A stretch of DNA of 64,000 bases, taken from NCBI GenBank assembly GCA_030668875.1, contig DAOVER010000005.1, forward strand, positions 26,597 to 90,596, in the 5' to 3' direction. Of the stretch, positions 15,691-54,934 are shown piece by piece (positions within the stretch are counted from its first letter, which is position 1; the number at the start of each line of letters is the position of its first letter). The DNA comes from Candidatus Heimdallarchaeota archaeon (GTDB lineage: Archaea; Asgardarchaeota; Heimdallarchaeia; Heimdallarchaeales; Heimdallarchaeaceae). The notes beneath the pieces were generated by a model, which saw only the letters and a program-made list of their open reading frames with translations, ran no database searches and was not told the origin of the DNA. A program made the position numbers and the translations under genes.

Positions 15691-15855
15691 ATGAGTGAAA
15701 GAGACATTGTCGAATTACTAGTAAGGTGGCGTTCGCTAGCAATGATGCTTGAAAGAGAGGAATTCAAAAGAATAGCAGGGGATCAAAAGGGTCTAATTGC
15801 AGCCGTTCTTATGATATTACTAGAGATGCAACAAAACTCGTCTGGAGGATACTAA
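15691..15855 (+). CDS. small ORF (54 aa) upstream of the E2 gene, absent from the ORF track
   Basis: My translation is MSERDIVELLVRWRSLAMMLEREEFKRIAGDQKGLIAAVLMILLEMQQNSSGGY. It ends 43 nt before the E2 start. There is no homology support. Confidence 0.25.
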   Translation: MSERDIVELLVRWRSLAMMLEREEFKRIAGDQKGLIAAVLMILLEMQQNSSGGY

Positions 15856-15898
15856 ACTTAATCTCAATTAGTCAAATCTAAAGGAAGGATTTGAACAA

Positions 15899-16366
15899 AT
15901 GTTAGCAGAAGAAGAGTTCTGGCCAAGGATAGCAATTGAAGCTAATGAATTGAAAAAAGAGCTTCCAACATTTAAACCAGTGGACAATAATACTTTGTTT
16001 TGGAGAGGATTCATTTTTGGAGCTGGGTTATATGAAGAAGGAGTATTTGTTCTTGAAATTGAAATTCCCAGAGAATATCCCTTCAAACCACCAAAAGTCA
16101 AAATGTTAACAAAAGTATTCCACGCAAATGTTTTCGATACAAGAATATGCGTAGGAGTATTAGGAGTAGATTGGACACCTGCTAATAACCTAGTAGATGT
16201 AATTGAATCAATAAGGTTCATACTTAGCAATCCAAATCCAGATGATCCTTTGAACTCTACGGCTGCTAATTTGATGAAACGTGATCCAAAGGAATATTCC
16301 CGCAAAGTAAGAGAATATGTTGAGAAGTATGCTACTTTTGAGCAGATAGGCAAATATTCGTTGTAG
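15899..16366 (+). CDS. ubiquitin-conjugating enzyme E2 (UBC fold)
   Basis: YPFKPPKVKMLTKVFHANV...RICVGVLGVDWTPANNL matches the UBC core: an HPN-like HAN triad, a catalytic Cys, and W-x-P-A. Confidence 0.85.
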   Translation: MLAEEEFWPRIAIEANELKKELPTFKPVDNNTLFWRGFIFGAGLYEEGVFVLEIEIPREYPFKPPKVKMLTKVFHANVFDTRICVGVLGVDWTPANNLVDVIESIRFILSNPNPDDPLNSTAANLMKRDPKEYSRKVREYVEKYATFEQIGKYSL

Positions 16367-38854: not shown

Positions 38855-41389
38855 CTATTTTTTTGGAGAGCTTGGATAAGTTCCGATTGGCATTAGCACT
38901 CGCTTTACACTAGAGACTATACCGTGTTCCTTTTCAGGAAGAGTTATTGCATCAATCTGTGCTTCACCTAATGCAACCAATTCATTCTTCAAGGTATAAA
39001 TCGCTACCATGTCGCCTGCTTTGAATTCTTCTGAATACCTTGAAACACCTGGTAAAGCTAATGGGGCACCATGACAGATAGTATTAACCGCACTGTCTTT
39101 GATAATAACTTGTGGTATATGTCTCACCCCATATTCCATAGGTAGAATAATGTTTCGTAAGGGATTTTCATCTTTTTCTTCTCTATACCATGCAAAAGCA
39201 TCATATAAATCATGGAGAGTGGATAAGAAATCATTTTCCGAAAATGGTCCAGAGCGCGTTCGTCTAAGTTCCTTCATATGAGCGCCACACGATAAACTTT
39301 GTCCAATATCATGGCAATTAGAAGACACAAAACCTGTTTCAATGAGAAAATTATGAGTTTTTGGTACAGTCATATCATAAACATAACCAGTACTTTGGAC
39401 ATTCTCAATTGATTCTATTTTTTCAATAATGAAATCATCCAGTTCTGGTAACATTATGTGTGTAGAAGCAGTTTTGTAGAACCCTCGCGTCATAGGGATA
39501 TTTTCTTTTAAAATTCTATCCAAATTTCCACCCATTATTTTTTTCAATTCTGTTTTATGGGAAATTAAATAATTCGCAAAATGAAAACCAATATGATATT
39601 TATCTCCATATTCATGATCAGAATTCAGTTCTTCGAACTCAGTGAATTTTCTGATTTTCTCTGGATGGTTAGAACCAATTTCATTGATGAATTTCAACTC
39701 TGCACCTATCGTACCAACAGACACTATATACATTGTAGTGATATAATTCTTAAAATTAACTTCTCTTGAAAAAATAGTATTTTCAATTTCTAATTTAAGT
39801 AGTAATTTATGAAGTATTATTGCTTCACTTCTGTTAACCGTGTATAAAGAAATACGAGATTTAACACTATGAGAATATGTTTTTATTTGTACAGACCCAT
39901 CCCCATCAAAATAACCTCGTAAGTAGGAACAAATCAATTTAGGTTCAAGTTGGAGCAAAGGAGAAAAATCAGCATTCTTTTTTGGGCTTCTTATTCCTAA
40001 AGATGCTGCTATAGTAGCAAGAAGAGAGTTTGTAAGAGATACACCCCAAACACCATTTTTATCTTGATTAACCGAATAATGTGAATTTGGGAATAATTCT
40101 TTGTAAATTTCAACATACTTATCAATTAGTTCCTTATTTGTATTATTAAAAATTAATCTTGTATAACGTACTGTATTTTTCTCTTTTGAATTATTTCCAT
40201 CTGAAGCAATTAATCCTAAAAGATAAAATAAAGATTCATTTAGCTCTCTTAGCTTAATGATTTGACCTTTTACTTGCTTAAATCTATAAATTTGTTCTTT
40301 AACATCTTCATATATTCCAGCTAGTTTAAGATGTTTTATTTTTATCGAGTAAGAAGAGTTTGAAACAAATGGCTGCCTACTAACATCTAGTTTTCTGCTC
40401 ATTTCTCTAATACTACCATATTTTTTAATGAAGGCGTTTTTACATTTTTCCTTTATTTCATCTTGTTCTATAAGGTACTCATCATCCAAAAGATCTGACA
40501 CAATTAGTTTTTTACTAGTTAAGTTTGGTTTAAAACTTTTAACTAAAAAATCACCAACTCTTAATTTTCTAGCTTCAGTCATATTATAACCAACATCTGT
40601 AGATTTCAACATTTCATGGTCTGGTGTAATAATTATTGAAATACCAGTTTTCATTTTTAGTTTAATTAAAACTGGAGGGGAAGGGATGGTTTGAACTGCA
40701 GATGGATCTTTTTGATCTATTTTTCCATCAACAAAAGAAAAGATTGTTTTTGGACTTTCAACGAAATCTTTAGCTGAAACTGATCCTTCAGCTGTAAGAA
40801 TCTGAGTATTAGGATGTAAACAATATTTTCTAACATAAAATCCTGCTTGAGAGCTTATCCTAAAAAGAACTTCTCTTTCCCTTATATCAAGAATCTCTGA
40901 ATTATAGATGGTTCGAATTCTTAATACTCTTTTTACACTTGCCCTTAATGGGGGTCTTTGATACAAATCACCAACATAATCACCAACAATAGATCTTATT
41001 CTTTCTTCATCAATATCGGCGTGTAATCGCATATTTCCAACGTATTCCTTTCCAGCGAGGAGAAGTGTATCCAATATTCGAGTTGCTTTTCCTAAAGCCG
41101 TAGGAAGAACACCGGTTACCTGTGGGTCCAAGGTTCCAGAATGACCCGCTTTTGGAATGCCAAGAATCTTTTTTACATAACTAACTACTTCATGGCTAGT
41201 TGGATTAGGAGGTTTGTCCAAGTTGATGATACCATAATTCAATAATTCTGCAATTGTTCGATTTGAAGGCTTTTTTCCCCATTTAAAATCAGTTGTATCT
41301 CTGGAAAGTATCTTTAAGGGGTACTTATTGTCATCAAATGATAACTTTGGGGTGGAAAAAACTAATGTCATGATATCATCACGGAGCAC
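38855..41389 (-). CDS. cbf5: H/ACA RNP pseudouridine synthase Cbf5 (TruB family) interrupted by an intein
   Basis: The exteins carry GHSGTLDPQVTGVLP (catalytic Asp motif), YQRPPLRASVKR, AGFYVRKY|CHDIG..GAHMKELRRTRSG and a PUA-like C-terminus. The exteins sum to 342 aa. Confidence 0.9.
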   Translation of the reverse strand: MLRDDIMTLVFSTPKLSFDDNKYPLKILSRDTTDFKWGKKPSNRTIAELLNYGIINLDKPPNPTSHEVVSYVKKILGIPKAGHSGTLDPQVTGVLPTALGKATRILDTLLLAGKEYVGNMRLHADIDEERIRSIVGDYVGDLYQRPPLRASVKRVLRIRTIYNSEILDIREREVLFRISSQAGFYVRKYCLHPNTQILTAEGSVSAKDFVESPKTIFSFVDGKIDQKDPSAVQTIPSPPVLIKLKMKTGISIIITPDHEMLKSTDVGYNMTEARKLRVGDFLVKSFKPNLTSKKLIVSDLLDDEYLIEQDEIKEKCKNAFIKKYGSIREMSRKLDVSRQPFVSNSSYSIKIKHLKLAGIYEDVKEQIYRFKQVKGQIIKLRELNESLFYLLGLIASDGNNSKEKNTVRYTRLIFNNTNKELIDKYVEIYKELFPNSHYSVNQDKNGVWGVSLTNSLLATIAASLGIRSPKKNADFSPLLQLEPKLICSYLRGYFDGDGSVQIKTYSHSVKSRISLYTVNRSEAIILHKLLLKLEIENTIFSREVNFKNYITTMYIVSVGTIGAELKFINEIGSNHPEKIRKFTEFEELNSDHEYGDKYHIGFHFANYLISHKTELKKIMGGNLDRILKENIPMTRGFYKTASTHIMLPELDDFIIEKIESIENVQSTGYVYDMTVPKTHNFLIETGFVSSNCHDIGQSLSCGAHMKELRRTRSGPFSENDFLSTLHDLYDAFAWYREEKDENPLRNIILPMEYGVRHIPQVIIKDSAVNTICHGAPLALPGVSRYSEEFKAGDMVAIYTLKNELVALGEAQIDAITLPEKEHGIVSSVKRVLMPIGTYPSSPKK
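39317..40822 (-). mobile_element. 502-aa intein with a LAGLIDADG homing endonuclease domain inside cbf5
   Basis: Starts at Cys (CLHPNTQILTAEG). Block B is IITPDHEML. The LAGLIDADG motifs are LLGLIASDGN and YLRGYFDGDGSV. Ends ...NFLIETGFVSSN, followed by the +1 Cys of CHDIG. Confidence 0.85.
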
Positions 41390-41705: not shown

Positions 41706-42245
41706 TTATTCACCTTTTGTTATTTTCTTAACTGATGCCATTATTATATCAACACACTCAGCTGCATCATATTTTTTTGTGTTGATTATTACATCATAGA
41801 TGGACAAATCAGAGATGTCAATATTATAGAGTTTTTGATATCTGTCTCTTTCTGATTCTTCTCTCATCAACGTCTCTTTTTTGATTTCTTCTATAGATCT
41901 GTTTTCTCTTTCAGCAATGCGTTGAATTCTTGTCTTTACAGGTGCTGTAATGTAGATTATCAAATCAGCAACCTTTCTTAGAACCCATCCACCTAATTGA
42001 GCGTCAACTATAATGCCATTTTCTACTTTTGCAAGTTCTACAGTTTTATTGTCTATGTATGTATCAATTTCATTGTTGGTTTCTGCAAGCTTGCTAAATT
42101 CTTCAATGGTCATGCCTTTTTCTTTAGCCATTTCTCTAAACAGTTGTCCAGCTGATACGTATGTATAATTCAACAACTCTGCTACAGTTTTTGCAGCTGT
42201 GCTTTTCCCTGAACCATGTGGACCAGAAATAGCTATTATAGGCAA
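41706..42245 (-). CDS. cmk: cytidylate kinase (archaeal type)
   Basis: P-loop IAISGPHGSGKST. Size and the conserved eL34-cmk-eL14 context fit. Confidence 0.8.
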   Translation of the reverse strand: MPIIAISGPHGSGKSTAAKTVAELLNYTYVSAGQLFREMAKEKGMTIEEFSKLAETNNEIDTYIDNKTVELAKVENGIIVDAQLGGWVLRKVADLIIYITAPVKTRIQRIAERENRSIEEIKKETLMREESERDRYQKLYNIDISDLSIYDVIINTKKYDAAECVDIIMASVKKITKGE

Positions 42246-42259
42246 AATCGTTACTTCCC

Positions 42260-42517
42260 TTAGCTTCGAACATCCGCTTTAATTGCACTTTTTAAACATC
42301 GAGAGCATAAATGACCCGCATGTTGTCTACTAGGGAGATGTTCAGAACGGGACATTTTTCTTACTTTATTCTGAGATCCAAATGCAACACCATGGAGGAT
42401 AGCCCCACATTGTGAGCAATGAGGTTTTTTAGTTCGCTTGGAAATTTTCTTTAATCTAGTTTCAGATGGGGTTCGTACTAGTCTTGTTTTTGAAACACGT
42501 AATGATGGTCTAACCAT
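42260..42517 (-). CDS. rpl34e: 50S ribosomal protein eL34
   Basis: RTPSETRLKKISKRTKKPHCSQCGAILHGV. The start is moved to the ATG at 42517, which is preceded by GAGGAG. This removes the overlap with the upstream gene. Confidence 0.85.
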   Translation of the reverse strand: MVRPSLRVSKTRLVRTPSETRLKKISKRTKKPHCSQCGAILHGVAFGSQNKVRKMSRSEHLPSRQHAGHLCSRCLKSAIKADVRS

Positions 42518-42527
42518 AAATATCTCC

Positions 42528-43247
42528 TCATTTGTTTGTCTTAGATTGAGGTTTGTTCTTTGCAAGTTGTTCTTTTTTAGAAACAGTTGCTGTCTTTAAA
42601 GGTTCAATTTTTTTGCTCTTTTTCTTTGTATGAGTTGCTCCAGAGGGAGTTGCTCCAAATATTCTACTAAGCAATGAACCAAAAGCAAAAGATACCATAA
42701 AATACCAGAGAGTAAAAGGCGCTTTTGAGTATCCATGATATTTTAGGGGTAAAGTTGTATCCACTACACCAGATGGGTATGATATACCAGATACTTGGAA
42801 CCATGGATTTCCTATCCAGGGAAAATCACCCAGATTAAAGGGTAACCATGCATAGTTATGATCAGTTGTAAAAGCGGTTCTAAGTATAGCAAATAAAATC
42901 AAGAAGGGAATGGTTGTGATAAGCATTGGTTTCATTCTTTTGAACATCATGGAGGATTGTAATTTCTTTACTCTTTCTTCATCTCTTTTGACACTCAACC
43001 ATAATTTCTTATCAGCGGTTTGCATTGCTGTTTTTCTCTTTTGATTCCAATCGTTAACTTTCTGCATACTTTCTTTTAATGCATCAGTATCAAGTATCAA
43101 TCGAGTAGCCAGTGTAGATATGCTTGCAAGCATGATTGAAGTTAGGGCTATAAATAGTGCAGAGTTAGGAAGTTGATTCCATCCCATACTAGTTATCCAT
43201 TCTGCAATTCCTGTAAACCATGGGTCCCAAAATGCCATATAAATCAC
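42528..43247 (-). CDS. DUF106/EMC3/TMCO1-like (Oxa1-superfamily) membrane protein
   Basis: TM helix, then coiled coil (KVNDWNQKRK...ERVKKLQSSMMFKRMKPM), then TM helices. Sits at the conserved position next to eL34 and cmk. Confidence 0.6.
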   Translation of the reverse strand: MIYMAFWDPWFTGIAEWITSMGWNQLPNSALFIALTSIMLASISTLATRLILDTDALKESMQKVNDWNQKRKTAMQTADKKLWLSVKRDEERVKKLQSSMMFKRMKPMLITTIPFLILFAILRTAFTTDHNYAWLPFNLGDFPWIGNPWFQVSGISYPSGVVDTTLPLKYHGYSKAPFTLWYFMVSFAFGSLLSRIFGATPSGATHTKKKSKKIEPLKTATVSKKEQLAKNKPQSKTNK

Positions 43248-43323
43248 TTCTTTTGCTTACTTACTCCACAAATAACTCACTTTTAAAAGCTTTTGTAACT
43301 AGAGTTTTTAATAATCTAATTCT

Positions 43324-44124
43324 TTAGATGTTGGGGAGAGAATCTTTTTTCAGTAAAACAAAGAAGTTATCTTTTCCACCTTTCCCACCGCATATTGAGA
43401 GATCAATTATGTTCAGATTAGTTTTCTCTAATATAGAAACAAGTTCTCTTTTGGTGAAAAGATGGTAAAATCTCTTTGCAATGATATTTCTATTTTCATC
43501 GCGCCAGGGGAGATAAATATCACCATGTCGCCAATCCTTATTTTTCAATTTCATAATAGGGTAGATTAAGAAATCGCCAATCAATTTTTTTCTAGTATCT
43601 GGCTTCCATCTTCTCCAGCAAGATAAAATAAGATATCCATCTTCTTTTAGCAAGGTTGACAGATGTTTAAGACATGAAACTGTTTCTTCCTTCACTCGTA
43701 GATGATGTATAGTCGCAATAGATAAAACTAAGTTGGCAAAATTGCTACGCAAACTTAAAGATTTCATATCGTTATTTATTGTGAAATGATTCCCTGCTTG
43801 AATATCAACTGAAGCTTGTAATAATTCTAAGGATATATCAGTGGCAATGAATTGTAAACTAGAACTATCAAAATGAAGAAGGTTTCTGCTGTTACCTGCA
43901 CCAATATCAACAAGGATACCTGAGGAAGGCAAAGAATGTATTTTGGAAATCTTATTCATGTACGTTTGAAAATCTTTCCAAGGCTTTCTTTTTACTCGTG
44001 CATACTTTGGAGAGATTTTCTTATAAGCTTCTATTAGCTCCTTATCACTATTCTTGTTACTAGTAAACAATGCATAGAATTTAGATATACAAAGTATATC
44101 AATTTTCTTCTTATTTCTGAACAT
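43324..44124 (-). CDS. Trm9/ALKBH8-like class I SAM-dependent methyltransferase
   Basis: YKKISPKYARVKRKPW, VDIGAGNSRN, SIATIHHL, GYLILSCW, DIYLPW and RFYHLFTKREL parallel the Trm9 motif order. Confidence 0.55.
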   Translation of the reverse strand: MFRNKKKIDILCISKFYALFTSNKNSDKELIEAYKKISPKYARVKRKPWKDFQTYMNKISKIHSLPSSGILVDIGAGNSRNLLHFDSSSLQFIATDISLELLQASVDIQAGNHFTINNDMKSLSLRSNFANLVLSIATIHHLRVKEETVSCLKHLSTLLKEDGYLILSCWRRWKPDTRKKLIGDFLIYPIMKLKNKDWRHGDIYLPWRDENRNIIAKRFYHLFTKRELVSILEKTNLNIIDLSICGGKGGKDNFFVLLKKDSLPNI

Positions 44125-44240
44125 TAAACAATGATTTTTATACTCTATAAAAAATCAAAATTTGTGTTTATGTTTGTGTTTATGTTGAAGGCAAAAATGC
44201 TTATAAATAGAAGCACACCTATCACATTAAAGCCACACCG

Positions 44241-45695
44241 GTGAATTACATGGTTTCAAAGTTCTTGATGCTATTCAAACCGTTTCAACGTTTTACCTTT
44301 GAGGTAAAGAAGCCAGCAAGAAAACCTTCTTTTAAAAGAAAGTTAGCTTGGACCTTCGGAATCCTAGCCCTCTATTTAGCTATGCTAAATATTCCTATTT
44401 TCGGTATACCTGAATCAGGTGGAACCGATCCCTTCTTCGCCATGAGGGCAATATTAGCTTCACAAAGAGGAAGCTTAGCAGAATTAGGTATAGGACCTAT
44501 TGTAACTGCTGGTTTGATTATGCAGTTACTTGTGGGATCACAAATTATCAAAGTTGATTTTACTAATCCTGAAGAACGTGCTCTATACACCGGAACACAA
44601 AAAATACTTGCTATATTGATGACCCTATTCGAAGCTTTAGCATATATTCTTGGTGGAGCTTATGGAGAGTTAGGTTTCCAAGCACAAATGATTGTATTAT
44701 TGCAATTAATTGTTGCAGGTTTTACCATTCTTCTTATGGATGAAGTTATCCAGAAAGGTTATGGACTTGGAAGCGGTATTAGTTTATTCATTGCTGCAAG
44801 TGTTTCATATACTATCTTTGATGGCATGTTCAGTTTAACGCAAGAAAGAATTGGAGGTTTTGATTGGTACAGAGGTTGCGTTCTCGCATTCTTTCAAGGT
44901 ATCTTCAAAGAAAATCCAGACATACTAACACCACTCAGTAGACCTGGTAGAACCCCCGATGTAATTGGTTTACTGGCAACAATAGTTGTTTTTGCAATGG
45001 TTATCTATGTAGACTCTATGAAAATTGAGATACCTGTCCAACACAGCCAATATAAGATGCCAGCCAGATATCCAATAAAATTCTTATATACGTCAAATAT
45101 CCCTGTAATCCTTGTAAGCGCCTTATTTGCAAACATCTACTTCGTTTCAAACCTAATGCACAACTCTTGGAGTGATATAACAACGGGTTATCAAGGATTC
45201 TTGGTCGACTTTTTCGGTAGATGGGATACGATAGAAGGCACGGAACAACTAACTCCAGTTTCGGGGCTAGCAGCTTTTACAACGGCACCGTATGGACCTG
45301 AACAAATTGCGGAGCAACCGTGGCATGCCCTAGTGTATTTACTATTAATGGTTGCACTTTGTGGTATCTTCTCGCGTATTTGGATAGATACGGCTGGGAT
45401 GAGTTCAAAAAATGTTGCGAAACAACTGTTAGATGCAAATATGCAAATACCTGGTTTTAGGCGTAATCCAAGGATTGTAGAAAGATATCTAGAAAGATAC
45501 ATTCCTACAGCAGCCTGGCTCGGAGGTTTCTTTATAGGTGTTCTAGCAGCAGTAGCGGACTTTCTGGGAGCTCTTGGTACGGGTACTGGTATTCTGTTAA
45601 CAACGGGTATTCTCCGTCAGTACTATGAAATCTTCGCTAGTGAACAAATTAGTGAAACTGTTCCAGCTTTAGCTGGAATGTTAGGAATAAAATAA
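44241..45695 (+). CDS. secY: protein translocase subunit SecY/Sec61-alpha (canonical copy)
   Basis: RGSLAELGIGPIVTAGLIMQLL, YPIKFLYTSNIPVIL, the L8/9 loop IPGFRRNPRIVERYLERYIP, and GTGILLTTGI. Confidence 0.9.
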   Translation: MNYMVSKFLMLFKPFQRFTFEVKKPARKPSFKRKLAWTFGILALYLAMLNIPIFGIPESGGTDPFFAMRAILASQRGSLAELGIGPIVTAGLIMQLLVGSQIIKVDFTNPEERALYTGTQKILAILMTLFEALAYILGGAYGELGFQAQMIVLLQLIVAGFTILLMDEVIQKGYGLGSGISLFIAASVSYTIFDGMFSLTQERIGGFDWYRGCVLAFFQGIFKENPDILTPLSRPGRTPDVIGLLATIVVFAMVIYVDSMKIEIPVQHSQYKMPARYPIKFLYTSNIPVILVSALFANIYFVSNLMHNSWSDITTGYQGFLVDFFGRWDTIEGTEQLTPVSGLAAFTTAPYGPEQIAEQPWHALVYLLLMVALCGIFSRIWIDTAGMSSKNVAKQLLDANMQIPGFRRNPRIVERYLERYIPTAAWLGGFFIGVLAAVADFLGALGTGTGILLTTGILRQYYEIFASEQISETVPALAGMLGIK

Positions 45696-45735
45696 AATTC
45701 CTCCCCCTTTTTTTACTTTTATTTTAGTATCCCTA

Positions 45736-46686
45736 CTAAAGATGTAGGTCTATCACTTTGTTTGTCTCGATACTTTCGATAGATGCGAGAGCAATCTTTA
45801 AAGCTTTAAGCCCATCGACCGAAGTTACAACAGGTTGTTTATTTTCTAAACATGCTTCCGCGAAAGAATTCATTTCTCTGCTTAATGGTTCTTGCCAAGT
45901 TGATTTTGTATTTCGTAACCACTCATCGTCTTCAATGATATATTCTTGTGTGATGTAATCAGCTTCTACTATCCCTTGCTCACAAGTAAGCATCAATTTT
46001 CTATATCTGTGAGGTGTTAAATAATTAGATTCAATGAAACCAGTCAACCCATTATCAAAATCAAGTAATATTTCAGCATAATCAATATAGCTATGACGTA
46101 ATTTTCCTCCACGAGCATACACGGAAATAGGATCTTTTGAAGTTAAATATCTGAAAGCATCAATATCATGGATACTCACATCACGAATAACATCAACATC
46201 TTTTAACCTATCAGGCCAAAATGGGCCTAGCCTTCTTGCACTCAACAATACAAGTTCACCTAGTTCCCCACTCCCTATGAGAGTTAGTGATTTGCCAATT
46301 ATTGGATTGAAACGTTCGATAAAACCTACAGACACAATAACGTTTGAGCTTTTAGCTGCATCAATAATTTTCTCTGCTTCTTCTAAGGTACTTGTCATAG
46401 GCTTCTCTATCATAACATGTTTTCCATGCTCTATAGCTTTGAGCGCTATTTCCCCGTGAGTAGAAGTAGGAGAAGCTATACTAACCGCATCTATTTCATT
46501 TAGACTCAATAGCTCATCTAAATCTGAAAAAGCTCTAGCACGATGTATCACTGCCAACTCTTTAGCCTTTTCAAGCTGAATATCATAAATACCAATAAGG
46601 TTTGTTTTTTCCATTTCTTTAAAAGCTCTTGCGTGGTTTTTACCCCAGCTTCCTACTCCGATAACTGCCATATTGAGTTTTTTCAT
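45736..46686 (-). CDS. Gfo/Idh/MocA-family NAD(P)-dependent oxidoreductase
   Basis: MAVIGVGSWGKNHARAF, the IASPTSTH...EKP motif, and a C-terminal alpha/beta domain. Confidence 0.85.
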   Translation of the reverse strand: MKKLNMAVIGVGSWGKNHARAFKEMEKTNLIGIYDIQLEKAKELAVIHRARAFSDLDELLSLNEIDAVSIASPTSTHGEIALKAIEHGKHVMIEKPMTSTLEEAEKIIDAAKSSNVIVSVGFIERFNPIIGKSLTLIGSGELGELVLLSARRLGPFWPDRLKDVDVIRDVSIHDIDAFRYLTSKDPISVYARGGKLRHSYIDYAEILLDFDNGLTGFIESNYLTPHRYRKLMLTCEQGIVEADYITQEYIIEDDEWLRNTKSTWQEPLSREMNSFAEACLENKQPVVTSVDGLKALKIALASIESIETNKVIDLHL

Positions 46687-46808
46687 CGAATCACTACCAA
46701 CTACATAAATTAATTTTACTCGCTTTGAGTAAACATAAGTGAATATTTAAAATTTTTTGTATGATTATTCTAAAAAATGAATTAGAGTAAATAAAAAGAA
46801 AAGAAAAA

Positions 46809-47267
46809 TTAGTTAGAGCTGCTTAGTTGAACTTTGCCACCAGCAGACTCTATTTTCTTAATTGCTCTTTTACTAGCTTCAGCAACTACAATATTCATCG
46901 CAGTGTTGACTTCGCCTTGAGCAAGAAGTTTAGTATAACCAAGCTCTGTCAAATTGACTTCGTATTTAGCACCCTTCTTTGTGACTTTTCCTTCACGTTC
47001 GAGGGTTGTGACCATTGAGTCTAAATGAGAGACATTGATTACAGTGTTGTCTTTTATGGATTCTCGAGGGCGGATGAAACCATGTTTTCCAATTGGAGGA
47101 CGCAAACCTTTAATCGTTTGAATCCAGTGATGTGACTTAGGAGCAGCTTTACCTACTCCCCCGCGCATACCACTTTTTCTGTGGGTTCGTACAACTCCCC
47201 AACCATGGGTTCTGTATCCGCGACGTTTTCCGGTTTTCTTCTTAGTTCTAACTGTCATTTTGATCAC
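46809..47267 (-). CDS. rpl15: 50S ribosomal protein uL15
   Basis: GKRRGYRTHGWG...HRKSGMRGGVGKA. Confidence 0.85.
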   Translation of the reverse strand: MIKMTVRTKKKTGKRRGYRTHGWGVVRTHRKSGMRGGVGKAAPKSHHWIQTIKGLRPPIGKHGFIRPRESIKDNTVINVSHLDSMVTTLEREGKVTKKGAKYEVNLTELGYTKLLAQGEVNTAMNIVVAEASKRAIKKIESAGGKVQLSSSN

Positions 47268-49559: not shown

Positions 49560-50105
49560 TTAATTTTCTGCTTTGTCAGAATCTGCTAATTCATCGAGAT
49601 CAAGATCCTCATCTAATTCGAAATCGTCTTCGAAATCGTCACCAATATCATCTTCAAGTAATTCGTATTCTTCCTCAAGCGATGTTGCGTCAAGCATATC
49701 ACCAATTTCATCTATAGTTGCAGGTGGGTTCAAAACCTTAAGTCCCAAATCAGCTGCATTGTCTAGAATCATTTGCCTCTTACGAGCACCAACGGTGTGC
49801 TTAATCATAACTGCTTCAGTTTCTTTATCTATTTCTTCAAGTTCATAGATATTAGCAACATGAACTACTTGATAACCCGAAGGATGCAGACCTCTGACAG
49901 CTTTTGGTCCCCGGTATCCTATGCTGACCATAGCAGGATAACCTTTGCGTTTTTCTTTCATTTTATTATCAATACCCTTAGGTTTACGCCAGCTTTTTTT
50001 TACTCTCTTGTAACGCCAGCTTTCTTGCCTAACAAAGTTAGGTCTACGAGCACTGATTTCTTTACGCTTTTTTAGTAAACGTTTCTTATCGACTGTCATA
50101 GGCAC
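49560..50105 (-). CDS. rpl32e: 50S ribosomal protein eL32 with an acidic C-terminal tail
   Basis: RPNFVRQESWRYKRVKKSWRKPKGIDNKMK...GLHPSGY. The tail is EEEYELLEDDIGDDFEDDFELDEDLDLDELADSD. Confidence 0.9.
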   Translation of the reverse strand: MPMTVDKKRLLKKRKEISARRPNFVRQESWRYKRVKKSWRKPKGIDNKMKEKRKGYPAMVSIGYRGPKAVRGLHPSGYQVVHVANIYELEEIDKETEAVMIKHTVGARKRQMILDNAADLGLKVLNPPATIDEIGDMLDATSLEEEYELLEDDIGDDFEDDFELDEDLDLDELADSDKAEN

Positions 50106-50271
50106 TCACAGTAGAATGTTACCTTATTTTGGTTAACCTATCATCTGGCTGTAGTTTTTAATACTTTTTATTGGTAAGAAAAAATGAAGTGAAAAGTTAT
50201 ACTAAACACAAATTTGGGGAAAAAATTAAAAAATTTGCAAAGGTTTAAAATGTTTTAAGAGGAAATCAATA

Positions 50272-51651
50272 ATGGAATCGAAGAAATTGGACTTATTTGA
50301 TTCAATGTCTTCAAGAGTAAGTATCCCATTTAATCTTAAGGTAATTTATACTTCTTTGTTTGCTATTCTTTATCTCATATTTCTAAATATACCCATTTTC
50401 GGCGTGCCTAGTTCAGGAGGAACTGATCCTTTTTTTGCTTTCAGAGTCATTATGGCATCTCAGAGAGGAAGTTTGGCAGAGTTTGGTATTTTTCCGCTTG
50501 TATACGCATCTTTCATTATGCATGTATTGGTGGGGTTAGGAATTTACAAAATGGATTTCACACAAGCAGAGAAGAGAAAGAAGTTTTCGATTATAGTTAC
50601 TATTCTGGGGTTGTTTTTCTCTCTCACATCATCTTTATGTTATGTAATTTTTGGTGCTTATGGAGAGATAAGTGTTGATCAAGGTTTTATAATCATTCCT
50701 CAATTATTGCTTGCTAGTACTCTTATAATAATAATTGACTATTTCATGAGAAAAGGGTACGGATTGAGCTCTGGTGTAAGCTTGTTTATAGTAGTCAGTG
50801 TTTCACGAACTATCTTTGATGGTATGTTCAGTTTAAGTCAATTAAGAGTTGGAGGTTTTGATTGGTACAGAGGTTGTATTCTCGCATTCATTCAAGGTAT
50901 CTTTAAAGAAGACCCAGATATACTGACACCACTCATCAGACCGGGTTTAACACCTGATTTTCTGGGATTCATTTTAGCAATTATAGTGTTTGGAATGACG
51001 ATATTCTTTGTATCCTTTACCATAAAGAGACCATTCTATCAGAGAGATCAAATTACAAAATCATCGATGACAGCTCAATCATTATACAACTATTCTAATT
51101 CCGTAGTAATAACCAGTTCATTTTTTGCAAATATTTCCTTCGTTTCAAATATGATGTTTAATACATGGAGCTCATTTTCAACGGGATTTAGAAGTTTGTT
51201 GGTTAGTTTCTTCGGTAGATGGGAGACGATAGAAGGCACGAATCAGCTAGCTCCAGTTTCGGGGCTAGCGGCTTTTACAACCCCTCCATATGGGGTTGAA
51301 CAAATTACACAACATCCGTGGAATACTTCGGTGTATTTTCTATTTATGATTGTATATAGTATCCTTATGTCTAGATTATTAGTAAAAACATCAGGAAAGG
51401 AAAATGTAAGTATTCTAAAAGGAACAGACATATTTAATCAAGAAAAATATGAAGTCACTAATTTCCCTTTAGCATTATTAGCTGGTTTTTTCATGGGGTT
51501 TTTAGCAGGGTTTTTTAACATCATTTCTCCATTGGGAACAGGAGTAGGTATTCTAATAACAACGTGCATACTGAAACAACTCTTGGACATCATTTCCCAT
51601 GAAAAATCCAAATGGAATGAATCAAGAAAAAATACGGAAATTAATAAATAA
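50272..51651 (+). CDS. divergent SecY/Sec61-alpha paralog
   Basis: Shares RGSLAEFGIFPLV, GGFDWYRGCILAFIQGIFKEDPDILTPL and FFGRWETIEGTNQLAPVSGLAAFTTPPYG with the copy at 44241. It has degraded TM7 (AQSLYNYSNSVVIT) and L8/9 regions. Confidence 0.8.
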   Translation: MESKKLDLFDSMSSRVSIPFNLKVIYTSLFAILYLIFLNIPIFGVPSSGGTDPFFAFRVIMASQRGSLAEFGIFPLVYASFIMHVLVGLGIYKMDFTQAEKRKKFSIIVTILGLFFSLTSSLCYVIFGAYGEISVDQGFIIIPQLLLASTLIIIIDYFMRKGYGLSSGVSLFIVVSVSRTIFDGMFSLSQLRVGGFDWYRGCILAFIQGIFKEDPDILTPLIRPGLTPDFLGFILAIIVFGMTIFFVSFTIKRPFYQRDQITKSSMTAQSLYNYSNSVVITSSFFANISFVSNMMFNTWSSFSTGFRSLLVSFFGRWETIEGTNQLAPVSGLAAFTTPPYGVEQITQHPWNTSVYFLFMIVYSILMSRLLVKTSGKENVSILKGTDIFNQEKYEVTNFPLALLAGFFMGFLAGFFNIISPLGTGVGILITTCILKQLLDIISHEKSKWNESRKNTEINK

Positions 51652-51697
51652 AAAATCAAGAAACATTAAGAAAAATAAAAAAAGAAGAATTGGAAAC

Positions 51698-52258
51698 TTA
51701 TTCGCTTGCCCACTTCCAGATTCCATCCATAAATGTTTCAGGATCTTTCTTTCTCTTACCCCTTAATCTACAGATTTCTTTCATGTTGGTAGTGGTTTGT
51801 CCTACAGCTTCTTTATCGATACCTTCTATGATAACATCATCTTTGTCAACCTTAACAGTTGTATCATCTCCTACAATAGGAACAATCAAAGGTTTTCTTC
51901 CTCCATAGAGGTTCTTGATTGTTATTAGACGTTTCTTGTTATCAGGTTCAACTGTAATTGGAAAATGGCTGAAGATTATTTTTGATCTATAGACATAACC
52001 TTCTGTTACACCTATCATCATGTTTTTGAGATGACCTACAACGGCAAGCATTTTTGCCTTTTTCTTTTTGTCAACGAAATAGGATTTGACATTGATTTTA
52101 TCTTTTGACTTCTTTAGTTCTACCTTGAAACCCTCGAAGTTTTTGATAAGTTTACCTCTTTTACCTTCCATGGTAACTATAGTTCCGTCAATAGTTATCT
52201 TCAAATCCTCAAGTAATTCAACATCTCGTTCAATATATACTTGTTTCATTATCATCAC
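51698..52258 (-). CDS. rpl6: 50S ribosomal protein uL6
   Basis: Two-domain L6 pattern, with position between uS8 and eL32. Confidence 0.9.
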   Translation of the reverse strand: MMIMKQVYIERDVELLEDLKITIDGTIVTMEGKRGKLIKNFEGFKVELKKSKDKINVKSYFVDKKKKAKMLAVVGHLKNMMIGVTEGYVYRSKIIFSHFPITVEPDNKKRLITIKNLYGGRKPLIVPIVGDDTTVKVDKDDVIIEGIDKEAVGQTTTNMKEICRLRGKRKKDPETFMDGIWKWASE

Positions 52259-52648
52259 CTAATATATGTAAGCTAATAGCCTTCCACCTATTCCACGTTC
52301 TTTTGCATCCTCGTGGGTTATTACACCTTCAGATGTTGTCATTACAAGGATACCAAAACCTCTTGCAGGTAGGTACTTTCTTTCTTCATCTTCTAGTTTA
52401 TCATGTTTAACTGGAAATCGAGGTTTGATAACACCACATTTGTTAATCCTGCCCATCAATTGTATTTCGAACATTCCTCCACGATGATCTTCTATATATT
52501 CAAGTTCACCGAGATATCCTGCTCTTTGAACAGTTCTGAAAACGTTCGCAATTATTTTACTAGCGGGTTTAACAGTGACGGTTTTCTTACCTTTTTTTTC
52601 AGCGTTAAGTATTGCAACTAAAGCGTCTGCTAATGGATCCATTTGCAT
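52259..52648 (-). CDS. rps8: 30S ribosomal protein uS8
   Basis: DPLADALVAILNAEKKGKKTV ... GGRLLAYIY. Confidence 0.9.
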   Translation of the reverse strand: MQMDPLADALVAILNAEKKGKKTVTVKPASKIIANVFRTVQRAGYLGELEYIEDHRGGMFEIQLMGRINKCGVIKPRFPVKHDKLEDEERKYLPARGFGILVMTTSEGVITHEDAKERGIGGRLLAYIY

Positions 52649-52662
52649 TTTTCTTTACCTCC

Positions 52663-52830
52663 TTAGCCTCCTCGACTTCCTGTTTTCTTGAAGCCGATTT
52701 TGGAATATATTTCTCTAATACAGCGTCTGCAAACATACAAACCACCACGTCTAATGATTGCCTGATGTGTTCCACAGCGTCTGCATTTTCTTGAGCCTTT
52801 TCCATATTTAATTTCTCTTCGTTCTTGCAT
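52663..52830 (-). CDS. rps14: 30S ribosomal protein uS14 (zinc-ribbon type, 55 aa), missing from the ORF track
   Basis: My translation of the minus strand is MQERREIKYGKGSRKCRRCGTHQAIIRRGGLYVCRRCIREIYSKIGFKKTGSRGG. It has CxxC...CxxC and sits at the expected position between uL5 and uS8. Confidence 0.85.
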   Translation of the reverse strand: MQERREIKYGKGSRKCRRCGTHQAIIRRGGLYVCRRCIREIYSKIGFKKTGSRGG

Positions 52831-53406: not shown

Positions 53407-54161
53407 TTCTTATCACCTTCGTTACCAGCAATTGTTACACTTGGAGTATCATTGCCCACAATGAAAATATATCTGAACAGTGTAACGAAAATCTCACCAT
53501 CAGGTGTCTTTATGGTCGCTGTTTTAGTTTTTTGTGTTCCATGAGAACTGATTTCTTCAATAGTTCCATGCTTACCCATCCACCTTCCACTAGTTACAAT
53601 ACCATAATTACCTATTTTCAATTCGTATTTTTCTAAAATCTTTTGATCTGGTAAAGATATCTTAACTGTGTCATGTGTATGGTAAGGAACACTATCGCTT
53701 TCAGATTTCTGTAAGATGATGTTTCTACCATCATGGAGATTTAGTTGTGTTAGACCTCCTTTGAGTGTAGTCTTATTCTTAATTTGGCAGAGTTTAACTT
53801 TTGTTTCATCTTCCTTAATTGGAATTGTCCTTAGACCTTTCTTCGGAGTATATACTAATCTATAATGTTCTTTTATTTTTGGGAAGGAAATAACATCCAT
53901 GAAACCTAGTGGGTATTTTCTGTTTGTTTTTATTTTTCCATCTATGAGAACATTTCTTTCAACCAATATACGTTTAACTTCACTCATGTTTCGAGCTACT
54001 CGGAACATATCACGGAGCATAATGGCCATTGGAATACATTCATGTGCAGCATGAGGACCAGGAGAGGGTTTAACCGTATAAGTATTAGCTTTCTTTTCAA
54101 TAGGTATATGTTTTGAAACAACGAATCTCTTCAGATGTCGTTTTCCACCGCCTTTTGTCAT
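53403..54161 (-). CDS. rps4e: 30S ribosomal protein eS4
   Basis: GGKRHLKRFVVSKHIPIEKK...YTVKPSPGPH, followed by a KOW region. Confidence 0.9.
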   Translation of the reverse strand: MTKGGGKRHLKRFVVSKHIPIEKKANTYTVKPSPGPHAAHECIPMAIMLRDMFRVARNMSEVKRILVERNVLIDGKIKTNRKYPLGFMDVISFPKIKEHYRLVYTPKKGLRTIPIKEDETKVKLCQIKNKTTLKGGLTQLNLHDGRNIILQKSESDSVPYHTHDTVKISLPDQKILEKYELKIGNYGIVTSGRWMGKHGTIEEISSHGTQKTKTATIKTPDGEIFVTLFRYIFIVGNDTPSVTIAGNEGDKK

Positions 54162-54934
54162 ACTAATTCCTCCTTTTTATCTGTTTTCTCAGAAAGCAAA
54201 TCTTCTGCGTTAGCACTCATAGTTTTTGCTGTACCAGGACCAATACCAGGTACTTTTGAAAGCTCTTCTGAGGTTGCTTTGGCAATCTTATCAACAGTAT
54301 CAAAACCATTTTCTTTGAGAAGCATTGCGGTTTTAGCACCTATGCCCTTAATCATAGATATGTCAAGGTCAGAAACTTTGGTCTCCTCCTTGGGAGCTGC
54401 TTCTACAACATCTTTAGGAGCATCAGTTTCGTCAAGATCTTCGAATTCTTCAAAAATATCCTCTTCAAGATCTTCATCTTCTTCTTCGACATCAGATTCT
54501 TCTAAAGGCTCATCGAATTCATCAAATAGATCTTCAGTTAATTCTTCTTCAGTAAGTTCTTTTCTAGAACGTCTCTTAATGATCTCCCTTCTCTTTTTAT
54601 CACGTAAATTCAGAGAAGTAATTATGATGTTGCTTGGATGAACAGGAAAACTAGAGACTGTACCATCAGCTTTTTCCTTACTATATCCTTCGATATGAAC
54701 TGAATATTTCTGAGGTAAAACACGGATTACTTTACCTTTAATCTCTTGGTCTTCAGATTTAGCTCTGAAAACCAGTACTTTGTCATCTTTATGTACAGGA
54801 AGACGTCGAATACCATATTTATTTCTCAATTCACGTGAGAGAAGAGCAGTCATTTGACGATTGCGAAGATGTAAAGGAGCAGTATAATACCTCTTACGTT
54901 GTTTACGAGGTTGTTTTGTTTTTGTATATCTCAT
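54158..54934 (-). CDS. rpl24: 50S ribosomal protein uL24 with a C-terminal extension of about 135 aa (acidic linker plus an HhH module)
   Basis: The N-terminal ~120 aa is L24 (KOW: HKDDKVLVFRAKSEDQEIKGKVIRV). Then come the EEELTEDLFDEFDE... linker and VSDLDISMIKGIGAKTAMLLKENGFDTVDKIAKATSEELSKVPGIGPGTA. Confidence 0.9.
   Translation of the reverse strand: MRYTKTKQPRKQRKRYYTAPLHLRNRQMTALLSRELRNKYGIRRLPVHKDDKVLVFRAKSEDQEIKGKVIRVLPQKYSVHIEGYSKEKADGTVSSFPVHPSNIIITSLNLRDKKRREIIKRRSRKELTEEELTEDLFDEFDEPLEESDVEEEDEDLEEDIFEEFEDLDETDAPKDVVEAAPKEETKVSDLDISMIKGIGAKTAMLLKENGFDTVDKIAKATSEELSKVPGIGPGTAKTMSANAEDLLSEKTDKKEELV

Follow-up and report, generated by a model that had tools for sequence, protein, structure and literature searches.

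A divergent SecY paralog family of Heimdallarchaeaceae in which two exoplasmic loops are recurrently converted to canonical sequence

The 64,000-nucleotide stretch of Candidatus Heimdallarchaeota archaeon DNA analysed here (the window; contig DAOVER010000005.1 of assembly GCA_030668875.1) encodes two SecY/Sec61-alpha proteins, the canonical SecY (SecY-A) and a divergent paralog (SecY-B) within the ribosomal protein gene cluster. SecY-B clearly derives from the SecY of Heimdallarchaeaceae, and its sequence is a mosaic due to gene conversion from canonical secY. In at least three lineages, recurrent conversion has affected the same pair of exoplasmic loops, and this recurrent, loop-restricted concerted evolution is the strongest new element of the analysis. 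The evolutionary account, in which an old, fast-evolving and often lost family has had its loops overwritten repeatedly, is held with high confidence; the functional account, in which SecY-B would be an accessory alternative channel subunit, is tentative and falls somewhat short of an even chance; and the explanation taken as a whole is modestly favoured. The genes concerned are:

44241..45695, + strand: SecY-A, canonical SecY/Sec61-alpha of 484 amino acids, donor of the converted tracts
49560..50105, − strand: eL32, the upstream flank of the paralog site (Pfam Ribosomal_L32e, 141 bits; synteny)
50272..51651, + strand: SecY-B, intact divergent SecY/Sec61-alpha paralog of 459 amino acids
51698..52258, − strand: uL6, convergent and tail-to-tail with SecY-B

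The original prediction of an intact 459-residue open reading frame (ORF), antisense between eL32 and uL6 and derived from SecY, was confirmed in its coordinates, its open frame and its ancestry. Both SecY copies are on the + strand of the window and every ribosomal protein gene of the cluster is on the − strand. SecY-B has 49% sequence identity to SecY-A (BLASTP, E=1e-147) and matches the Pfam Plug_translocon domain (PF10559) with 40.5 bits against a cut-off of 22.1. Its AlphaFold2 (AF2) model (predicted local distance difference test, pLDDT, 78; predicted template modelling score, pTM, 0.80) has helices at all ten transmembrane (TM) positions and a plug helix (TM2a) at residues 55-61, so that the retention of ten TMs and plug, for which structure prediction had been proposed as a check, is borne out in the model. 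The top Foldseek matches of the model are Sec61-alpha proteins (TM-score 0.82 and E=1e-25 against 7tm3), and SecY-B is accordingly modelled with the ten-TM, two-half fold of the SecY/Sec61-alpha superfamily. The window belongs to a metagenome-assembled genome and the exact protein occurs in only one cluster, as might be the case for an assembly chimera or a contaminated metagenome bin; this explanation is given almost no weight, since SRR26080963 as assembled independently by Logan matches the locus at 100% identity over 11,702 nucleotides, both junctions included, the composition is uniform, the same arrangement is found in four other unrelated metagenome assemblies, and a sister species has a 3′ remnant of the gene at the same site.

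Conversion was located in two tracts of SecY-B:

50809..50935, + strand: conversion tract 1, exoplasmic hinge loop L5/6; donor region 44811-44937 of SecY-A
51211..51281, + strand: conversion tract 2, core of exoplasmic loop L7/8; donor region 45213-45283 of SecY-A

When maximum-scoring segments were compared with 5,000 codon-column permutations, tract 1 (127 nucleotides at 89% identity) scored 71 against a permutation maximum of 41, and tract 2 (71 nucleotides at 91.5%) scored 47, over every permutation. Tract 1 bears the genus-specific canonical residues IFKE.PDILTPL and holds an identical run (SecY-B 50849-50876, SecY-A 44851-44878; codon-shuffle p=0.002) that had been noticed earlier as 26 nucleotides but is 28 nucleotides long, while the near-identical block earlier put at about 110 nucleotides is in fact the 71 nucleotides of tract 2. 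The synonymous divergence (dS) between SecY-A and SecY-B is 0.37 in tract 1 and 0.18 in tract 2; outside the tracts it is at least 1.2 and in places too saturated to be computed. Over most of SecY-B the third codon positions are 0.25-0.35 identical to those of SecY-A, with 0.90-0.95 at 50809-50900 and 0.70 at 51199-51290. Divergence is thus heterogeneous along the gene, not uniform, and the proposal of a mosaic with gene conversion is upheld by both the permutation tests and dS. In the AF2 model, tract 1 corresponds to the whole exoplasmic hinge loop L5/6 and tract 2 to the core of L7/8. The dS of the tracts is about equal to that of SecY-A versus its nearest-species orthologs (0.32-0.38), and in tract 2 SecY-B matches the canonical SecY of L006 and L010 where SecY-A of the window differs, indicating that the donor of tract 2 was an ancestral, genus-level canonical allele. 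Therefore, the conversions are about as old as the genus radiation and their donor was canonical. Conversion in the opposite direction, from SecY-B to SecY-A, was ruled out, as the shared loop features are also present in canonical SecY of genomes without a paralog. An embedded nucleotide-level element behind the identical blocks was likewise ruled out: the profile of synonymous conservation across 25 canonical SecY genes is flat with no peak over the tracts, and the window has no Rfam match.

SecY-B is not the one-off insertion that it was first taken for, but a member of an old paralog family at the eL32/uL6 junction of several Heimdallarchaeaceae lineages. Paralogs at the same site and in the same orientation were found in at least three other lineages of Heimdallarchaeaceae, with uL6 arranged beside the paralog as in the window in L002, L004/L005, L038 and L041, and an exhaustive hidden Markov model search added P0047 and P0050. 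The other members are:

P0014 (L002/L039): between eL32 and uL6
P0057 (L041): between eL32 and uL6
P0015 (L004/L005): beside uL6
Ortholog of P0015 in L038, unnamed: beside uL6, a pseudogene
P0047 (protein only): at a different genomic location
P0050 (L045): relocated as well, with a truncated N-terminus

Pairwise identity among the paralogs is only 32-40%, versus at least 77% among canonical SecY proteins. In a tree of 318 unconverted columns, built by neighbour-joining with Kimura distances only, the paralogs (B) are monophyletic with 91.5% bootstrap support and sister to the canonical clade, on branches that are about 10-20 times longer than those of canonical SecY as judged by eye from the drawn tree. 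Derived residues common to the paralogs are A444P (7/7) and G85I/F (6/6), as well as the change of L72 to T/M, and the conserved C-tail (ASEQISETVPALAG.LG.K) is absent from all of them, short basic tails being present instead. The family is restricted to Heimdallarchaeaceae. The paralog is missing from the eL32-uL6 junction in all 13 GTDB species representatives in which this junction is visible, and no second secY copy was found within 10 kb at 23 loci of GTDB species representatives, which have canonical SecY only.

The converted blocks are not randomly placed: at least three lineages have them in one and the same pair of exoplasmic loops. L041_B shares with L034_A, a canonical SecY from the same metagenome, 59 nucleotides at 98% identity in L7/8 and 59 nucleotides at 95% in L5/6; L004_B shares 107 nucleotides at 92% with L009_A in L5/6; and L002_B finds its best nucleotide match in L5/6 of L037, which comes from the metagenome of L039 (an identical copy of L002_B). 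Lineage-specific indels of canonical SecY have also been copied into paralogs, for example a deletion of 3 residues and the "ADPGQ" insertion of the L024/L034 clade. In a tree-independent test, sites that separate the canonical SecY of different lineages were taken as diagnostic and the state of each paralog was scored, with the following ratios of own-lineage to other-lineage states:

SecY-B of the window: 46:10 inside the two loops, 13:10 outside
L041_B: 39:5 inside the two loops, 17:11 outside
L004_B: 29:7 inside the two loops, 15:21 outside

The segments are therefore incongruent, the loops following the SecY of their own lineage and the remainder grouping with other paralogs; that L5/6 and L7/8 of each paralog carry the canonical sequence of its own lineage indicates recurrent conversion from the canonical gene to the paralog. 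It was also considered that secY might have been duplicated recently and independently in each lineage, with fast divergence outside the loops and no conversion, as each paralog is nearer to canonical SecY than to the other paralogs and its loops match own-lineage SecY down to the indels. This is very improbable: dS differs more than fivefold between the tracts and the rest, the plug-TM2 segment is 85% identical in protein and saturated at third positions, the paralogs outside the loops are not nearer to the SecY of their own lineage and form a monophyletic group with shared derived residues, and the gene would have had to enter one intergenic site several times, always in one orientation. Independent duplications were rejected on the dS heterogeneity and the diagnostic sites; one old duplication followed by recurrent conversion fits, and independent recent duplications do not.

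The sequence of events read from these patterns begins with one duplication near the base of the family, the copy landing antisense at the operon boundary between eL32 and uL6. Purifying selection on the copy has since been relaxed but real, its evolution has been much faster than that of canonical SecY, and it has been deleted, truncated or turned into a pseudogene in most lineages. Non-crossover conversion from canonical secY has repeatedly overwritten the L5/6 hinge and L7/8, the only large loops at the cell surface. A mobile-element or viral origin of SecY-B was ruled out, as no terminal or direct repeats surround the gene, no viral relatives were found in IMG/VR, and none of its neighbours is an integrase-like, defence or mobile gene.

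Outside the tracts, parts of SecY-B have been kept and parts lost to very different degrees:

50383..50502, + strand: plug-TM2 segment, more conserved in protein sequence than any other region apart from the converted loops
51067..51114, + strand: degenerate L6/7-TM7 segment, MTAQSLYNYSNSVVIT in place of RYPIKFLYTSNIPVIL
51424..51468, + strand: shortened cytosolic loop L8/9 without the IPGFR motif (position of yeast Sec61 R406)

The near-identity of the TM1-TM2 region that had been reported holds for the protein, TM1-plug-TM2 being 80-85% identical to SecY-A, and third-codon-position identity there is only 0.25-0.30. High protein identity with low third-position identity indicates that this segment is an old divergence under purifying selection and not a conversion; its nonsynonymous divergence (dN) is 0.23, its dS 1.8 and its dN/dS ratio (omega) 0.13. 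For L004_B versus L038, omega is 0.25, higher than in the flanking ribosomal proteins (0.03-0.10) or canonical SecY (0.03-0.08); the value comes from this one pair, as SecY-B has no close ortholog and the synonymous sites of SecY-A versus SecY-B are saturated outside the tracts. Where measurable in SecY-B, omega is about 0.2-0.45, so that the comparison proposed as a check for a pseudogene in the making gave no value near 1 across the gene, and any neutral period is limited to about 0.05 substitutions per site. In simulations, a neutral ORF of SecY-B composition survived with P=0.03 at 0.05 substitutions per site and P=0.002 at 0.1, and at least five lineages have kept the paralog ORF open although dS is saturated. 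Because the ORFs have stayed open despite this saturation and omega is about 0.25, SecY-B is not neutral; it is under relaxed but real purifying selection.

The pore ring of SecY-B is hydrophobic, with I, V, V, I and V at five positions and I at the sixth (yeast M450; column A L453, motif-matched). The positions follow the yeast numbering V82, I86, I181, T185, M294 and M450, and the yeast Sec61 sequence used for it agreed at 11 of 11 checkpoints. Confidence in the AF2 model falls only at the N-terminus, L6/7 and L8/9, by comparison with an AF2 control of SecY-A built from the same alignment. In L6/7, pLDDT is 43-48 versus 67-73 in the control, and the degradation of the TM7 motif noticed at first sight is evident in the alignment of YPIKFLYTSNIPVIL of SecY-A with MTAQSLYNYSNSVVIT of SecY-B. 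The ribosome-contact loop L8/9 is indeed replaced by a shorter one, of 29 residues versus 42, with pLDDT of 41-57 versus 75-78, a net charge of 0 versus +3, and IPGFRRNPRIV missing; the IPGFR motif aligns with yeast GKRETS, its arginine being yeast Sec61 R406. The GFR motif of L8/9 is deleted in SecY-B of the window and in L041_B, and kept in P0014, P0015, P0047 and P0050. The two losses are probably independent, because the deletion in L041_B is different and larger, and the paralogs that group with L041_B keep the loop.

The lateral gate, described originally as degraded, appears to be altered but not abolished in the window copy: its polar cluster is Y/S/N in SecY-B versus T/E/N in SecY-A. 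Hydrophobic residues have taken its place in most members of the family, the cluster of the other paralogs being L/F/V, S/L/I, L/L/V or L/F/L. The cluster corresponds to T80/E122/N268 of Methanocaldococcus jannaschii and T87/Q129/N302 of yeast, where the Q129L and N302L substitutions stabilised the closed channel and raised the signal-hydrophobicity threshold (PMC3518225).

Several observations weigh against the account preferred here. SecY-B scores below the cut-offs of NCBIfam archaeal SecY (NF006341, 190 bits versus 300) and TIGR00967 (92 bits versus 253.6), keeps 52 of 104 universally conserved positions, and is found exactly in only one genome in a database of 5.8 billion proteins. The closest species have deleted the gene, so any function is non-essential. 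Long-branch attraction could have inflated the support for the clade of paralogs, although synteny and the diagnostic-site test are independent of the tree. Finally, the restriction of conversion to the loops may be a neutral by-product: because conversion needs stretches of identity, identity islands may maintain themselves without selection on partner binding.

In L007 and L010, the nearest species, with SecY-A 95% identical to that of the window, eL32 and uL6 are adjacent. L007 has a clean deletion of the whole gene (15855-15929), and L010 has no SecY-B gene but a scar (15877-15960) in which about 85 nucleotides remain, the last ~28 codons or so of the 3′ end:

51568..51651, + strand: 3′ end of SecY-B, surviving as a deletion scar in L010 (L010 15877-16150 versus window 51568-51840, 86.5% identity)

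In the L038 ortholog (325-1715) the frame is interrupted by stops at codon 16 and behind "...IPHTD", and a small duplication (FCGIF) shifts it; P0018 is a database fragment called between these lesions. Because it has been lost repeatedly in relatives, SecY-B is dispensable. Such a record would also be expected if SecY-B were a decaying duplicate, a functionless relic heading to loss whose likeness to SecY is partly refreshed by conversion. The deletion scars of the sister species, the two stops and frameshift of the L038 ortholog, the N-terminal truncation of P0050, the absence of the paralog from all 13 representatives with a visible junction, the loss of half of the universally conserved residues together with the L8/9 loop and TM7 motif, and the scores under the SecY cut-offs all agree with decay. 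This explanation is nevertheless unlikely, for the converted tracts make up only about 200 of 1,380 nucleotides and the remainder has stayed open in at least five lineages at high to saturated dS, whereas a divergence of 0.05 substitutions per site would suffice to disrupt a neutral ORF with P>0.95, and even the tracts themselves, at dS 0.18-0.37, are older than that. Decay also does not account for omega of 0.25 between L004_B and L038 and 0.13 in plug-TM2, nor for the retention of the TM helices, plug and pore ring. A variant of it, in which function was lost very recently, within about 0.05 substitutions per site, may apply. Sequence alone does not decide between the accessory channel, the regulator and the decaying copy that were originally put forward.

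The functional account of SecY-B as a dispensable alternative alpha-subunit would leave the pore and plug intact and change the cytosolic face, which lacks the C-tail and, in this genome, the L8/9 docking loop. Such a subunit would not dock ribosomes canonically, might have a different gating threshold, and might serve minor or specialised clients. Its exoplasmic face would be the same as that of SecY and might therefore allow the same outside partners to be used. The binding site of TRAP-alpha in eukaryotes is the Sec61 hinge loop, and the same contact is predicted for one TRAP-alpha/SecY pair from a Heimdall archaeon (PMC11186639); shared outside partners are for that reason a plausible cause of the loops being kept in step. 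The stronger proposition, that loop-restricted conversion has been kept by selection because SecY-B must show the same cell-surface face as SecY, is doubtful. If it were true, the loops might serve the docking of TRAP-alpha-like or oligosaccharyltransferase (OST)-like partners in a second, ribosome-independent translocon, or act as a decoy for an agent that binds the exposed loops of SecY; the family would mark L5/6 and L7/8 as the partner-binding surface of the Asgard Sec61-like channel, and would exemplify a rare use of gene conversion to keep a mimic in step with its model.

Alternatively, SecY-B might be a non-conducting mimic that titrates or shares partners (Sec61-gamma/beta, TRAP-alpha-like, OST) or is a decoy for a virus or toxin, conversion holding its loops identical to those of the essential target. 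That it is only the two surface-exposed loops that still track canonical SecY, and do so in at least three lineages, that the distribution is patchy with frequent loss like that of accessory or defence genes, and that hydrophobic lateral-gate substitutions stabilise the closed state in yeast (PMC3518225) are compatible with a mimic. However, L5/6 and L7/8, which vary more than any other part of canonical SecY (amino-acid identity 0.5-0.7), are still under purifying selection with omega of 0.05-0.13, and the positive selection of an arms race was not seen in these surface loops. SecY-B has no neighbouring defence or mobile genes, terminal repeats or viral relatives, and its conserved plug and pore ring would be needless in a pure decoy. 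The mimic is thus a less likely explanation than decay, and the accessory channel subunit is preferred to both.

Concerted evolution between prokaryotic paralogs is exemplified by tufA and tufB. The SecY pair is similar in that non-crossover conversion between directly repeated paralogs a few kilobases apart has left low-dS tracts in a diverged pair. Unlike tufA/tufB, the two secY genes have not been homogenised: conversion is limited to two short exoplasmic-loop segments and recurs at the same places in several lineages while the remainder diverges fast, which makes it a clean example of segment-specific concerted evolution in archaea.

Second copies of SecY/Sec61 are known in bacteria (SecY2), plastids and fungi (Ssh1). 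With canonical archaeal SecY and eukaryotic Sec61-alpha (PF00344, NF006341), SecY-B shares the two-half fold with its 10 TMs, as well as the plug helix and the hydrophobic pore ring; it differs in its scores under the cut-offs, its lack of the C-tail, the L8/9 GFR motif and the TM7 YTSNIPVIL motif, and its non-essential nature. Ssh1 is similarly a dispensable, strongly diverged duplicate of a channel subunit beside the essential copy, and pairs with shared or paralogous small subunits. Its origin is independent, as SecY-B falls within the SecY of Heimdallarchaeaceae and away from the eukaryotic P0019 and P0024, and to our knowledge no loop-restricted concerted evolution has been reported for Ssh1. 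Ssh1 binds ribosomes and acts co-translationally (PDB 2ww9), whereas SecY-B lacks the L8/9 docking motif. Bacterial SecY2 (aSec; NF009082) is also a second divergent SecY. It handles a few special substrates post-translationally. SecY-B is of archaeal origin, does not match NF009082, and has ribosomal protein genes as neighbours instead of secA2, asp and glycosyltransferase (gtf) genes. No description of an archaeal or Asgard SecY paralog, of this Heimdallarchaeaceae family or of the loop-overwriting pattern was found in the full-text searchable literature.

Heimdall-group archaea are the closest known relatives of eukaryotes. The SecY of this group is more Sec61-like than other archaeal SecY, because the best Protein Data Bank (PDB) match of SecY-A is mammalian Sec61-alpha (385 bits). 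SecY-B is in effect a natural mutational scan of the Asgard Sec61-like channel, in which the paralogs show the C-tail, L8/9 loop and gate polar cluster to be expendable, and the plug, TM2, pore ring and surface loops to be held. Annotation pipelines label such genes "SecY" or "SEC61 alpha", which can mislead marker-gene phylogenies and copy-number contamination checks. Also relevant to automated annotation is that SecY-B has no match to PF00344.25 (Pfam-A) at E<=0.01 and that precomputed matches to PF00344.26 exist for the same protein, a disagreement that is a version or filter effect.

The intergenic region between eL32 and SecY-B contains two further features:

50106..50190, − strand: conserved eL32 upstream region, close to identity in L007 and L010 and still discernible in L014 and L024
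50244..50263, + strand: putative SecY-B expression signals, a TATA-like TTTAAAAT (50244-50251) 28 nucleotides before the ATG and a purine-rich AGAGGA (50258-50263)

The first (CATAGGCACTCACAGTAGAATGTTACCTT ... TTTTTAATACTTTTTAT) is almost invariant between species and recognisable between genera, and probably serves as promoter and leader of the eL32-uL15 operon, which would make the uL6/eL32 junction an operon boundary. Heimdall genomes whose cluster is split at precisely this place, uL6|L32e, were noted in a survey of ribosomal gene clusters in Asgard archaea (PMC10833476). An A/T-rich box and a GGAGG-like motif are also present upstream of the other intact paralogs in L002, L004 and L041, and the two motifs may be tentatively annotated as expression signals of SecY-B.

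SecY-A scores 231 bits with Pfam SecY and 424 bits with NF006341, over the cut-off of 300, and its identity to SecY from 23 Heimdall GTDB genomes is 77-95%. Its listed start is GTG 44241, but database orthologs begin three codons later at ATG 44250 (MVSKF...), the likelier start. The canonical secY is inverted relative to the ribosomal operon (window 41706-47267). A Gfo/Idh/MocA oxidoreductase gene (45736-46686) stands between secY-A and uL15, and a methyltransferase gene (43324-44124) between secY-A and an EMC3/TMCO1-like gene of the YidC/Oxa1 superfamily (42528-43247). As regards a second Sec61-beta or Sec61-gamma, a Pfam scan of the neighbouring genes gave only this EMC3/TMCO1-like gene. 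The colinear order of uL15 and secY is kept in L011, and most other genera have a further inversion.

Other genes of the window were noted in passing. A Cbf5/dyskerin-type pseudouridine synthase (38855-41389, − strand; DKCLD, TruB_N, TruB_C_2 and PUA domains) is extended to 844 amino acids by an intein bearing a LAGLIDADG homing-endonuclease domain; its ortholog in L004 has 338 amino acids, with the intein domain absent among the precomputed Pfam matches. The eL32 protein has 181 amino acids, of which residues 22-126 match Pfam L32e and the C-terminal ~55 form an extremely acidic, D/E-rich tail. A 66-residue ORF (52605-52805, − strand) is spurious, the real uS14 (MQERREIKYGKGSRKCRRCG..., 55 amino acids, zinc-ribbon type) being in another frame of the interval. 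The uL24 protein (54158-54934, − strand; 258 amino acids) is a fusion of Ribosomal_L26 with a C-terminal helix-hairpin-helix domain (HHH_5, 51 bits), which is also found in L004 together with an S4-HhH protein.

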